Translations under genes and position numbers: made by a program | In this document: in pieces, positions 1-3,625 of the stretch | Layout of the letters: each line of letters starts with the position of its first letter | Position numbering within the stretch: position 1 is the stretch's first letter | The notes under the pieces: model-generated | What the model was told of the DNA's origin: nothing | Database searches by the model: none | What the model saw: only the letters and a program-made list of their open reading frames with translations | DNA from: a virus | Taxonomy: Duplodnaviria > Caudoviricetes | IMG/VR virus record: IMGVR_UViG_3300024275_000016 | Coordinates: 1-41,446 of that record | Length of the DNA stretch: 41,446 nucleotides | Direction: 5' to 3' (one strand)

Positions 1-14
1 AAATCTTCCATATT

Positions 15-140
15 GGGCCAATAAGCTTTTTCAGCGGAAGCTGGACCAATATGGAAGATTTATCCTTGCGTACCAAAAGTGGCTTCTCGCGACACAAGGC
101 CCAGGCGGATTCAGTCCTCACGTCCTTCGCGAACTAGGCT
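15..140 (+). repeat. 126-bp direct terminal repeat, left copy (circular contig overlap)
   Basis: GGGCCAATAAGC...GAACTAGGCT at 15..140 is identical to 41321..41446. Confidence 0.95.
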
Positions 141-1012: not shown

Positions 1013-1576
1013 CTATCGCCAGTCCGAGTGCCGGCCGGCGAACTGCTCGCGCCTCTTATTGGTGACCTGGACGTAGATCATGGTGTTCTGGATGTTGGAA
1101 TGTCCCAGATGGTCCTGGATGGCCACAATATCGGTGTCATGGGCAGACAGGTAGGTCCCACACGAATGCTTCAGCGCATGCATGTGGGCCCTCTCAGGAG
1201 CGATGTGCGCTTTCGCGCAGTAGTCCTTCATCAGCTGGTCAAGGCGCGATCGGGAGACGCGGCCGTGCTGCCGGGTGGTGAAGAGCGGCCCTGGCGCCAT
1301 GCCCCGTATCCGGAGCCAGGCGCTGATCGCCAGGCGCTCCGACCGCACCAACGGGAACTCGCCCGAGTTCGATCCCTTCAGCCGGCGGATCATGATCCGC
1401 TGGGCCTTCTCCCGGTAGTCGCCAATCTGGATCATCCCCAGCTCGCTGGCGCGCAGGCCACGGTGGTACGCCAGGCGAAACATGGCTGTATCCCGGGGCG
1501 ATTTGATGACCGCGAACAGGCGATCGATCTCTTCCTCGGTCAGGTATTCGGGGATTGTCTTAACCTTGCGTTTCAT
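1013..1576 (-). CDS. tyrosine recombinase, FimB/FimE/Xer-like, catalytic domain only
   Basis: 187 aa; RDTAMFRLAYHRGLRASE (Arg), RRLKGS (Lys), HMHALKHSCG (HxxK/R), LGHSNIQNTMIY (His, Tyr). Confidence 0.92.
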   Translation of the reverse strand: MKRKVKTIPEYLTEEEIDRLFAVIKSPRDTAMFRLAYHRGLRASELGMIQIGDYREKAQRIMIRRLKGSNSGEFPLVRSERLAISAWLRIRGMAPGPLFTTRQHGRVSRSRLDQLMKDYCAKAHIAPERAHMHALKHSCGTYLSAHDTDIVAIQDHLGHSNIQNTMIYVQVTNKRREQFAGRHSDWR

Positions 1577-1880
1577 CCTTCAATTCTGCTCGTTCTTTGG
1601 ATTCTCCCTCTTGCAGTTGCGCCGGACCAAGGGCTGGAGCCAACTCCGCCAGCAATGGCCTGAGCTCGGGACCCTTCATGCCCGAGTGGCGCGCGATCGC
1701 AAATTGCAGCGATAGCAGCTTCAACCGGTTCGCGTCATTGCCGTTGATTCGGGACAGTACCTTCAGCGCCATATTCGCTCGCCCATTGGCGTTGTCGCTG
1801 CCCGTTGTAAAGTAATCCTTGATTGACTCGAGCGCCTGGGGCGCCAGATCATTCAGTGCTTTCGATGCTTCGGTATCCAT
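1560..1880 (-). CDS. hypothetical protein between array and recombinase
   Basis: 106-aa ORF; ATG directly follows the last array repeat, which supplies AGGAG; overlaps the recombinase start. Confidence 0.7.
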   Translation of the reverse strand: MDTEASKALNDLAPQALESIKDYFTTGSDNANGRANMALKVLSRINGNDANRLKLLSLQFAIARHSGMKGPELRPLLAELAPALGPAQLQEGESKERAELKDETQG

Positions 1881-2340
1881 TCTTCAGTTCTCCTTTTCCT
1901 TGTATCGAATGCTCCTTCAGTTCTCCCCGCGTCTGATTGCACACCGCCTTCAGTTCTCCCCAAATCGATTGCTCCCGCGCGCGACGATCGAGCATCGGGA
2001 AAATCTGGCGACCTTCAGTTCTCCTCGGCTATTCCCCAAATCGATGCTCTCTCAGTGCGCCGCAGCGACCTTCAGTTCTCCTCCGCGTCTGCTCACGACT
2101 GCGCCCTTCAGTTCTCCTCGTTCCGTTGTTCCAAATGCTACAACGCGCACGGATTCTCCCATGCGAATGAGATCAAGCCCTTCAGTTCCCCTCGCCAAAT
2201 TCACAACGCAGCGCGACCTTCAGTTCTCCTCGCCCTTATCCGCTCTGAGGACCTTCAGTTCTCCCCGCCCTTCCCAGAAAGGAGGAACCATGCCTTCAGT
2301 TCTCCTCAATTCTTGCAGTAGCACCACCTTCAGTTCTCCT
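1881..2340 (-). CRISPR. atypical CRISPR-like mini-array, 11 short repeats (minus-strand consensus RGGAGAACTGAAGG)
   Basis: CCTTCAGTTCTCCY on + strand starting at 1881, 1914, 1947, 2012, 2069, 2105, 2179, 2217, 2252, 2293, 2327; intervening unique segments mostly 19-27 nt (three longer: 43, 51, 60 nt); begins 2 nt after the stop codon of the Cas12f-like gene. Confidence 0.8.
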
Positions 2341-2342
2341 CG

Positions 2343-3461
2343 CTATTCCCCGAATCGATGCTCCAGCTCGCGGATCGCCGCGCCGGCCTTCGTGGCCTGC
2401 TTCCGTTTGCGGTCGATTTCCCGCTTAACGGCACGCTCCGTTCCGGCATCCGCCAGGTCTGCCTCCGTGTGGACGTTCATTGCCAGCATATCGCCTTTAT
2501 CCTTCAGCATTTGTGTGAAGCGAAACGCCGGCCAGTCCGCATTTTCCAGCCCAACCACTGTCAGATCCCCTATCCCCTGCCCCTTCAGCCAGTCGATAAT
2601 CTCTCGAGACCACTGGTGCAGCCAATTCGTGAGCCAGCCGTCCCAGGTCATGTTGGCGAGCGTCTGACGCTTGCTGCGGGCTGAACCCTTGCGCCGGCCG
2701 ATCTGACACAACACCCGGCGCCGTATCGCATCCCACTCCTGTTTCCGCTTCAATAGCGTGACCAGCCGGCCGGTGAAGTCCCGGGACTCGAATTCCGTCC
2801 GCAGCCACAACCTATTGTTTTGTCCAATTGGGCCCAAGGTGGCCTTACGCTGGCCGAACGTGCCAAATTGTACCGCTATGGGGTAGGCCAGCCGGACTAT
2901 GACCTGGCGCCGTTCCGGCTTGACGACGATCGCGGCCTTGCGAATCGATATCTTCCCGGCCGCCATGTCATCCAGCAGGGGGCCCTGCCAGTCTTTGACT
3001 GTCCCGCACGCGAGGGGAATTTTAAGCCACGCCCCGTCCTCACATTTCGCTGCCTGTGCCTGTAATTCAATGACATAGCGGTCACCGTCTCGAGTCAGAC
3101 GGACCCCTGATTCCTTCCGGTCCTTGTTGCCGCGGATGGTGAGGGCGGCTGTGGTTTTCCACTCAGGGAGAGGGGCGCCGGCCAGGATGCGTTTGGCGTG
3201 GCGCCGCCAGGTCATCAGAACTTCGCGTTCTGCGGCCGTATAGGCATTGCTGCCCAGTTCCATCTTCTCGTCGTGCCGGATCCACCGGGTCACATCGTGA
3301 GGGATGTTTTTGGTGGGATCGACGCAGAGATTTTTGGATTCAGCCCAGAGCGCGCGCAGGAACAGGTTCCGGTAGCGTGCTGCCTGCCATGAGAGGTCCT
3401 TGAGGCGCTGGAAGAGTTCCCAGTCTCCCCGCAGATCGAGTTTAACGGCGAGCACGCGCAT
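2343..3461 (-). CDS. Cas12f/TnpB-like RNA-guided protein, predicted nuclease-dead and C-terminally truncated
   Basis: Blocks resembling Cas12f1 (recalled alignment): DWELFQRLKDLSWQAARYRN, LGSNAY..WRRHAKRILAGAPLPEWK, LLDDMAAGKISI..VIVRLAY, NWLHQWSREIIDWLKGQGIGDLTVVGL, WPAFRFTQMLKDKG. RuvC-I GIDLG reads LGPIG, RuvC-II MEDL reads VVGL, no CxxC ribbon or RuvC-III. Start ATG 3461 (372 aa) or GTG 3485. Confidence 0.8.
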   Translation of the reverse strand: MRVLAVKLDLRGDWELFQRLKDLSWQAARYRNLFLRALWAESKNLCVDPTKNIPHDVTRWIRHDEKMELGSNAYTAAEREVLMTWRRHAKRILAGAPLPEWKTTAALTIRGNKDRKESGVRLTRDGDRYVIELQAQAAKCEDGAWLKIPLACGTVKDWQGPLLDDMAAGKISIRKAAIVVKPERRQVIVRLAYPIAVQFGTFGQRKATLGPIGQNNRLWLRTEFESRDFTGRLVTLLKRKQEWDAIRRRVLCQIGRRKGSARSKRQTLANMTWDGWLTNWLHQWSREIIDWLKGQGIGDLTVVGLENADWPAFRFTQMLKDKGDMLAMNVHTEADLADAGTERAVKREIDRKRKQATKAGAAIRELEHRFGE

Positions 3462-3489
3462 ACGCTCATGCTCGCCGTCTGCCACTGCC

Positions 3490-3625
3490 TCTGACGCTGT
3501 ATGCGGCACCACGACCGGAGAACTGGGGCCGTCGCCGTTGCCGGCGTGAAGAGTGCCTCGTGCGAGATTACGAGGAGATTCAGCCGAAGCAGTAGAATCG
3601 GACATTCCAATCCAACTGTACGCTA
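3490..3625 (-). ncRNA. putative tracrRNA/scaffold RNA
   Basis: Intergenic; minus strand has CAGTTCTCC (3525..3517) complementary to repeat GGAGAACTG and CTTCA (3551..3547) complementary to repeat TGAAG; several hairpins including a GCAA tetraloop; ends approximate. Confidence 0.6.

Follow-up and report, generated by a model that had tools for sequence, protein, structure and literature searches.

How does a phage come to carry a CRISPR array whose units have a median length of only 37 nucleotides (nt), and what could such an array do? The question is raised by IMG/VR virus record IMGVR_UViG_3300024275_000016, whose 41,446 nt form the window analyzed here. The carrier is a soil phage. The record is rated 100% complete and contains P22-like capsid, portal and terminase genes. 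A dead Cas12f-fold effector, a conserved partner, an array and an element resembling a trans-activating CRISPR RNA (tracrRNA) occur together in this phage and its relatives. The array probably serves a phage CRISPR locus with a dead Cas12f as a guide array in shortened form. Its repeat stubs would keep the bases that pair with the tracrRNA, and the complexes likely bind DNA of rival phages without cutting it.

The array was located by its repeat core. On the minus strand, positions 1881-2338 hold 11 copies of a 12-nt core, nine of them exact and two with one mismatch. Over the whole window 17 core matches were found at <=2 mismatches compared with 3.1 expected, and 17 was reached in none of 100 shuffles. 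The core-to-core periods were 34, 41, 35, 38, 74, 36, 57, 65, 33 and 33 nt. A first-pass annotation of this DNA had described units mostly of 33-41 nt, built on 14-nt core repeats. The unit length agrees with seven of the 10 periods (the rest are 57, 65 and 74 nt) and a short conserved core is present, but the conserved stub measures 16-17 nt and not 14. Unlike its sister loci, the window array does not have the canonical form of 36-37-nt repeats with ~35-nt spacers. Three runs, distinct from the possible source run and perhaps all from one campaign, gave contigs that matched the window without differences over 1762-1946, 1885-2035, 1996-2436, 2071-2241 and 2322-2499. Because these contigs repeat parts of the array identically, it is not an assembly artefact. 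An open reading frame (ORF) of 282 amino acids (aa) spans the array on the plus strand; it was rejected as a real gene, since the periods in relatives are irregular and no spacer is held in common. A Rfam scan returned no match, and a promoter and terminator scan gave chance-level results only.

Related loci were then compared. The searches gave 19 and 9 loci (window included, some duplicates), and three distant loci came from a scan with a scaffold pattern. Canonical arrays (50 intervals) had a median period of 71 nt, with repeats of 36-37 nt and spacers of ~35 nt. Intermediate arrays (18 intervals) had a median period of 55 nt and ragged 5' halves, and compact arrays (141 intervals) a median period of 36 nt. 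The unique part was at least 14 nt long in 125 of the 141 compact units. Eroded arrays reach 11-28 stubs per locus, and the effector, partner and tracr frames are intact there. In the tree, the canonical locus L028 branches first and eroded arrays appear in two places. A single clade of eroded arrays was rejected (approximately unbiased test, p-AU 0.0017), giving two changes. The array-style labels had been fixed before the first tree; recombination between phages could blur this reading of it. The comparison shows that erosion of full repeats starts at their 5' side, takes the 3' part of the spacer with it and has occurred at least twice independently. The first-pass annotation had also proposed a check on array variation in relatives, and here the periods proved irregular and the compact loci, at 69-75% effector identity, have no spacer in common.

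Remnants of the full repeat were detected in the window itself. When 11 window flanks were compared with 181, the 22 nt upstream of the 2012 stub matched the full-length repeat of L026 at 17/22 positions (0/300 shuffles as good), and those upstream of the 2327 stub at 16/22 (4/300 shuffles as good). A repeat-start motif 35-40 nt upstream is kept in four of the 11 window stubs, and in 0/27 stubs of L007 and 0/25 of L020. The intermediates L026 and L006 retain repeat 5' starts at 35-38 nt in 5/11 and 5/12 cases. These matches uphold the suggestion that the stubs were cut down from a ~37-nt full repeat overlapping the effector stop. The overlap comprises the last seven codons and the stop codon TAG (2343-2345), and only the length had to be refined, to 38 nt (2327-2364). 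This 38-nt form is a genuine full repeat. A near copy at 2012, a deleted copy at 1947 and pairwise similar flanks at 1914/2069 and 2217/2252 were all recovered as annotated. Two intervals are spacers of 34 and 35 nt, each followed by a repeat start. The 5' half of the repeat at 2105-2144 gave no significant match to repeats of relatives. A short stretch of the 35-nt spacer is complementary to the repeat 5' half (1979-1997/2042-2060), possibly by chance.

The position at the gene end is not peculiar to the window. By our reading, a stub overlaps or abuts the effector stop in 9/10 eroded-array loci. In L250, an outgroup, the final 10 residues of the effector are encoded by the first of three full 37-nt repeats (L250:4598-4790), an intact one with the same sequence as the next. 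These residues align to the C-terminal motif of the family profile, and therefore the motif may itself derive from a repeat. L250 gave no partner gene match.

The effector family comprises 63 proteins at E<=0.001, and a profile search gave 190 representatives that grade into intact Cas12f-like proteins. The model of the window effector had a predicted local distance difference test (pLDDT) score of 83.8; residues 1-40 scored below 50 and are predicted to be disordered. The best Foldseek match was AsCas12f (E 8e-16). With VIA, the effector aligned to 8dzj at Z 18.0 (root-mean-square deviation (rmsd) 18.3 over 332 residues), to dCas12f 9n9c at Z 16.4, to the N-lobe of 9nzp at Z 14.3 (rmsd 3.3 over 174 residues) and to TnpB 8h1j at Z 12.0. 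The link to Cas12f, which had been drawn from the 3' end of the repeat, is borne out by the AsCas12f and 8dzj matches. PADLOC detected Cas12f in the family member P0038 (E 3.7e-10) and gave no match for the window effector P0001, and the NCBIfam TnpB profile scored 19.5 bits with a cut-off of 100. The RuvC-I strand (positions 255-259) is without Asp in 62/62 family rows, Glu is kept in the RuvC-II column in 5/62, and the zinc-finger CxxC occurs in 0/62. Zinc finger and RuvC-III are absent from the effector, and its C-terminus is shortened, with part of RuvC gone. The TNB domain was detected in the intact relatives P0182 and P0195, not in the window effector. Since the RuvC-I Asp and the zinc finger are missing and the RuvC-II Glu is mostly lost, the effector is predicted with high confidence to have lost DNA cutting. 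Cellular copies of the effector were found neither in GTDB contigs (one peptide pattern) nor in 401 genomes of one phylum.

A predicted tracrRNA was located inside the effector gene. The element of ~100 nt lies upstream of the conserved core of the effector and could be aligned across 20 loci. Its stem has five pairs, three of which show compensatory changes. Across the loci, one segment (anti-repeat 1) is predicted to pair with repeat positions of about -17 to -9, and the stem loop (anti-repeat 2) with the final 6-8 nt. Anti-repeat 1 begins at the same column in 16/16 loci, despite widely differing repeat ends, and anti-repeat 2 keeps the same register in 16/16 loci. L250, which is outside this set, follows the same pairing register. 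The tracr-repeat pairing score was 14.1 for cognate pairs versus 9.1, and the observed sum was reached in 0/200,000 permutations over 10 repeat types. By computation, the tracrRNA and the repeat thus pair in two segments, as expected for a V-F Cas12f1. Repeat positions -17 to -13, which lie outside the search motif, are conserved, and conservation drops at -18. The part of the repeat that is predicted to pair with the tracr is exactly the part kept in the stubs. None of the nine canonical loci showed an anti-repeat of more than 8 nt directed at the 5' half of the repeat. A 9-nt stub complement at ~3516-3527 was rejected as an anti-repeat, since it is unconserved and falls within a clade-specific insertion.

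The tracr core motif was found in 23/24 loci. In 19 of these 23 it lies within the effector open frame, always as the same two codons, although the loci counted are related and so not fully independent. The distances from tracr to conserved core took 12 different values, all multiples of 3. In three of the four loci with the tracr outside the effector frame, the array is inserted between tracr and gene. Such an insertion is seen at L005:440-710, L021:7576-7987 and L024:7746-7959. In L021 and L024 the first stub follows ~10-20 nt after the tracr, which comes close to a natural single guide. Translation may run through the tracr, and the effector may regulate itself. The likeness to a TnpB omega-RNA overlapping the gene 3' end, also suggested in the first-pass annotation, is loose: the 3' overlap is a CRISPR RNA (crRNA) repeat, and the scaffold is at the 5' end of the gene. 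Two distant dead Cas12f-like genes (L238 and L255, one of them on a 241-kb contig) retain the in-frame tracr motif with no array nearby.

Table 1. Features of the CRISPR locus and adjoining genes in the window
Feature	Position	Strand	Basis
Predicted tracrRNA, in frame in the effector N-terminal extension, ends approximate	3480..3591	-	Cross-locus alignment, pairing, covariation
Predicted anti-repeat 1, complementary to about repeat positions -16..-9	3571..3578	-	Pairing register
Predicted anti-repeat 2, loop of the covarying stem, complementary to last 6 nt of repeat	3547..3553	-	Pairing register
Effector, 420 aa, Cas12f fold	2343..3605	-	Predicted structure, fold searches, alignment
Collapsed CRISPR array with 10 intervals between 11 repeat stubs, each with 16-17 conserved nt	1881..2364	-	Core matches, periods, stub conservation
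First repeat, full-length 38 nt, overlaps last 7 codons and stop of effector	2327..2364	-	16/22 to L026 full repeat; same overlap in L250
Full-length 34-nt spacer	2145..2178	-	Same length as canonical spacers of relatives
Near full-length (40 nt) repeat, canonical-type start	2105..2144	-	Start motif 40 nt before stub end
Probable spacer-less full repeat; interval resembles repeat 5' half	2069..2105	-	Start motif at 37 nt; inference
Full-length copy of gene-end repeat, behind 19-nt spacer	2012..2049	-	17/22 to L026
Full-length 35-nt spacer	1977..2011	-	Sequence
Gene-end repeat copy with internal deletion	1947..1976	-	Sequence
Last repeat, probably spacer-less	1881..1915	-	Sequence, start-motif scan
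Conserved partner gene, 106 aa, four helices predicted	1560..1880	-	Profile search, structure model
Small tyrosine recombinase, catalytic domain only	1013..1576	-	Weak FimB/E-like and Xer matches

The targets of the family were searched with 209 spacers against 373 kb of related phage DNA, disregarding the top-scoring match, which was that of a L020 spacer to its own unmasked locus. One match was obtained, from a spacer of L011 to L017/L018, over 30/32 nt and with 48.1 bits, as opposed to 32.2 for the best of 20 shuffles. The protospacer lies within a dnaB-like helicase gene and has the 5' flank TTC, so that the observation on the protospacer-adjacent motif (PAM) comes from one protospacer. 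The system is also present in the L017/L018 phages themselves, in keeping with competition between related phages. Such competition has a likeness in viral mini-arrays (PMC11656645). The window spacers were also searched. Against their own genome the best matches were 12-13 nt, against INPHARED phages 14 records were returned, all at E>=0.6, and in two sets of phage DNA, of 373 kb and 318 kb, there was no match. In 301 genomes of one candidate host phylum (that of G006), 24 matches at E<=0.05 corresponded to chance level, and 14 inspected ones lay in unrelated ORFs, out of register. Exact 16-nt seeds of three window spacers gave 29, 40 and at least 120 matches in viral contigs. For the two long spacers these matches extend at chance level. 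For the first spacer there were six 19/19 matches without a TT flank, and 120 matched loci averaged 40% guanine-cytosine. The L028 array had no match in plasmids. Acidobacteriota received no support as host, with the terminase in 0/201 genomes.

Based on these observations, the following mechanism is proposed. Stub and tracrRNA would form a 6-9-bp duplex and a 6-8-bp loop duplex, as the covariation suggests. The repeat 5' half would be dispensable and free to be lost because the tracr never reads it. Spacers of ~35 nt would be added by host Cas1-Cas2 at a full repeat (in the window probably the copy pinned by the gene end), and deletions or duplications between stubs would then leave each unit with about 14-25 nt of guide. 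The complex would bind TT-flanked targets and block transcription or replication, and the partner would act with the effector. As the tracr is part of the effector mRNA, binding to it would let the effector damp its own translation. We infer the function from one spacer match together with the Cas12m/TldR precedent.

Several results weigh against this interpretation. Plain co-folding, which leaves pseudoknots unmodelled, pairs the stub 3' end in the clade of the window with another tracr segment and not with anti-repeat 2. The tracr fold is only modestly better than shuffles (z -1.95, -1.12, -2.84 and +0.57 for four loci). The window array is invariant across the three other runs, without spacer turnover, and at least two of its 10 intervals resemble repeat halves without a spacer and not guides. 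No search gave a convincing target for any of the 10 intervals; the lone target of the family belongs to 1/209 spacers and to a canonical array, not a compact one. Lastly, three distant loci that retain the tracr gave no partner match, one of them being cut at the gene end.

Some of these results would suit other explanations. The same binder might carry compact guides frozen onto host genes, such as defence or physiology promoters, and so act as a multi-target TldR-like repressor and not against phages. Short fixed guides and a lost nuclease activity fit regulators, and there are precedents in a prophage TldR that represses host fliC (10.1101/2023.11.30.569447) and in array-linked dCas12f guides that sometimes match efflux promoters (PMC13472631). 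The invariant array and the fact that no compact spacer matches a phage agree with this as well. However, without a common spacer at 69-75% identity the compact arrays have no conserved target, the lone real target is in a phage, and the candidate host genomes gave chance-level matches in unrelated genes. We therefore regard a host repressor as unlikely, while granting it some chance. An array that has lost its function and simply decays, with at most a few guides still working, would explain irregular periods, spacer-less repeats and degenerate copies, the mini-genes inserted between stubs in L020 and the window spacers without targets. Against decay, the loss is one-sided and ends at the tracr-paired boundary, most unique parts keep 14 nt or more (125/141), the effector, partner and tracr frames remain intact beside 11-28 stubs, and the erosion pattern arose at least twice. 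Decay is thus very improbable. Only a slight chance is given to a dead effector that brings the partner or the tyrosine recombinase to a target for activation, recombination or disturbance of packaging. The partner is present in 27/32 entries and often translationally coupled, dCas12f-sigmaE offers a precedent (PMC13472631) and dead TnpBs associate with tyrosine recombinases (PMC10691335), but the partner carries no sigma, helix-turn-helix (HTH) or enzyme signature and has no match in the three distant loci, and the recombinase stands beside the array in two loci only.

A further alternative concerns the building of the array under the reading of a cut-down guide array. The first-pass annotation had favoured recombination or duplication over Cas1-Cas2, and new units could indeed arise from short pieces of stub plus DNA with no Cas1-Cas2 step. 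Neither cas1 nor cas2 was found in 5/5 phage records, two of them complete, while controls were detected. Stub-spacer units are duplicated exactly in L024 and L028, and stub arrays occupy varied places: upstream of the gene, between the two genes, behind the partner and also on the opposite strand. Among the 27 stubs of L007 and the 25 of L020 there is no full-repeat start. On the other hand, sister lineages have canonical ~35-nt spacers between 36-37-nt repeats, two such spacers are present in the window, intermediates retain repeat 5' starts (L026 5/11, L006 5/12), and the one target has a PAM-like TTC flank. As the sole source of units, recombination is therefore quite unlikely, though loci such as L007 and L020 may have followed a non-Cas1 route. 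The ~35-nt spacers of the sister lineages and the window array suggest that spacers were acquired, presumably in trans by host Cas1-Cas2, and that deletion came afterwards. Acquisition may take place at the full repeat that is held in place by coding sequence. Since the compact loci have no common spacer, it seems to continue after erosion began. What stands of the earlier proposal is the trimming: the sequences support deletion and local duplication as processes that trim and move units.

The partner, a helical protein of ~100 aa, lies behind the effector or inside the array in 27/32 locus entries (duplicates included), and the five entries without it are truncated, either at a contig end or at the limit of the DNA analyzed. 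The partner profile was built from 18 locus entries; the window protein alone as query finds seven other loci. It belongs to no Pfam, NCBIfam or PADLOC family, and a fold search with a pLDDT-64 model gave no match at E<=0.001 and Atlas neighbours without names. The purine-rich core of the last repeat occupies the expected ribosome-binding site of the partner gene and may act as such. The recombinase adjoins the array only in the window and L007. It was rejected as a universal acquisition enzyme because it is present in these two loci only, and it is probably not a core part of the system. Among runs the window recombinase is polymorphic, the array is not. A 17-nt direct repeat pair downstream of the recombinase (891-907 and 967-983) and an inverted repeat of 20 bp in the first part of the window (1-61) are possible recombinase or regulatory sites.

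Related loci displayed further arrangements. L007 contains a second stub array at L007:1700-1960 (minus strand), which lies upstream of the tracr on the opposite strand and is oriented divergently to the effector. At L020:8172-8640, a 120-aa HTH gene (Pfam HTH_23/28) is placed between two stubs like a giant spacer. The canonical loci L013, L016, L017 and L025 have a common ~70-nt leader with an inverted repeat, before the first repeat and after the partner stop. The full repeats at L011:7665-8320 are fixed at the first ~10 nt and last ~14 nt and variable in the middle, a pattern consistent with separate acquisition and tracr constraints. Exact tandem stub-spacer duplications were seen at L024:9628-9822 and L029:18-227, with the array crossing the ends of a terminally repeated record. 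L009 and L014/L015 have effector, partner and tracr-like element and no array detected in the available DNA (L009 is truncated where its contig ends). Genome contigs scanned for an array pattern (31/64 parts) returned unrelated repeats only.

Among known systems, type V-F Cas12f1 (AsCas12f1, SpCas12f1; PDB 8j12, 8dzj, 9i8y) has the same fold, and the window effector is within its range of ~400-500 aa. Cas12f1 crRNA and tracrRNA pair in two segments, with a 5-7-bp short duplex in a pseudoknot (PMC11246509). The stub-tracr pairing resembles this, but without the long stem. The mature Cas12f1 crRNA consists of a part-repeat and a spacer, guides of 16-18 nt suffice, and the PAM of SpCas12f1 is TTC (PMC8548392). 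In contrast to V-F, the window system has lost the catalytic residues and the TNB zinc finger. The V-F tracr of 153-169 nt lies between gene and array, whereas the present one, of ~90-110 nt, is inside the effector 5' coding region. Moreover, there is no long anti-repeat, the array is at the size of mature crRNA, a dedicated partner is present, and the system is phage-borne. It thus resembles a dead tracr-dependent Cas12f and falls outside V-F by catalysis, tracr position and array form. The dCas12f-sigmaE systems (Hoffmann et al., PMC13472631) show the same RuvC C-terminal truncation with predicted binding without cutting, but are described there with a sigmaE/HTH partner and single guides without tracrRNA, features that the window system does not have. 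The array-linked dCas12f cluster of that paper, with a Chitinophagaceae example and guide RNAs upstream of arrays, was compared by description only.

Reduction of repeats also has precedents. On the trajectory from Cas12f to RpoE-TnpB, RuvC-III is lost first, and the repeat then shrinks to its 3' half close to the tracrRNA ('half-DR', for direct repeat; Altae-Tran et al. 2023, PMC10691335). At that stage a single half repeat becomes joined to the tracr and the resulting fusion RNA is duplicated, whereas the present loci have a single tracr and 10-30 tandem half repeats with distinct spacers. The delocalised homing crRNA of type V-K, used with tracrRNA and a dead Cas12, has a 13-nt repeat and a 17-nt spacer (PMC12719977), but it is a single unit against a tRNA gene for a Tn7-like transposon, and the window has a whole array. 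No Tn7-like transposition genes appeared among 41 ORFs scanned against PHROGs, a scan that included no family-specific search. Viral mini-arrays have one or two spacers against related viruses, host-identical repeats and no effector of their own (PMC11656645), as opposed to 11 repeats with cognate effector and tracr in the window. Interference without cutting is established for V-C and V-M (PMC12669027). TldR and Cas12m (V-M) are likewise borne by mobile elements and repress by non-cutting RNA-guided binding. TldR uses one fused scaffold-guide RNA, the window system a separate scaffold and an 11-unit array. Cas12m is tracr-independent, and it is larger than the window effector. TIGR-Tas, which has a Nop-domain protein, was not matched, since the window fold is that of Cas12f. 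TIGR-Tas also has dual-spacer repeats.

In the literature covered, which included few subscription papers, neither whole half-repeat arrays nor a tracr in frame within an effector gene were found. The effector family may sit unremarked among published V-U groups. New here are the graded erosion series, the exact boundary of the predicted pairing, the dual-coding tracr and one target. More tentatively, and with somewhat greater doubt than confidence, the loci might form a distinct phage subtype, a natural form of CRISPR interference (CRISPRi) at ~36 nt per guide. One transcript would then be mRNA, tracrRNA (first ~45 codons) and pre-shrunk multiplex array, without a long maturation duplex. Such a system would regulate itself, acquire at a repeat pinned by the C-terminus and use a new helical partner.

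If functional, a core binder of ~375 aa, a tracr of ~100 nt and guide units of 36 nt would together offer a very compact scaffold for multiplex CRISPRi. It is unusual for a tracrRNA to lie in frame within its own effector gene, and such dual coding suggests that autoregulation is built in. Arrays of this kind would probably escape finders tuned to longer repeats, and RNA-guided systems of phages may be undercounted. In summary, the loci point to a CRISPR array that shrank stepwise, and more than once, to the minimum of its effector, with the boundary apparently set by tracrRNA pairing. They would extend the published half-repeat route from CRISPR towards single-guide systems, here with multiplexing kept.

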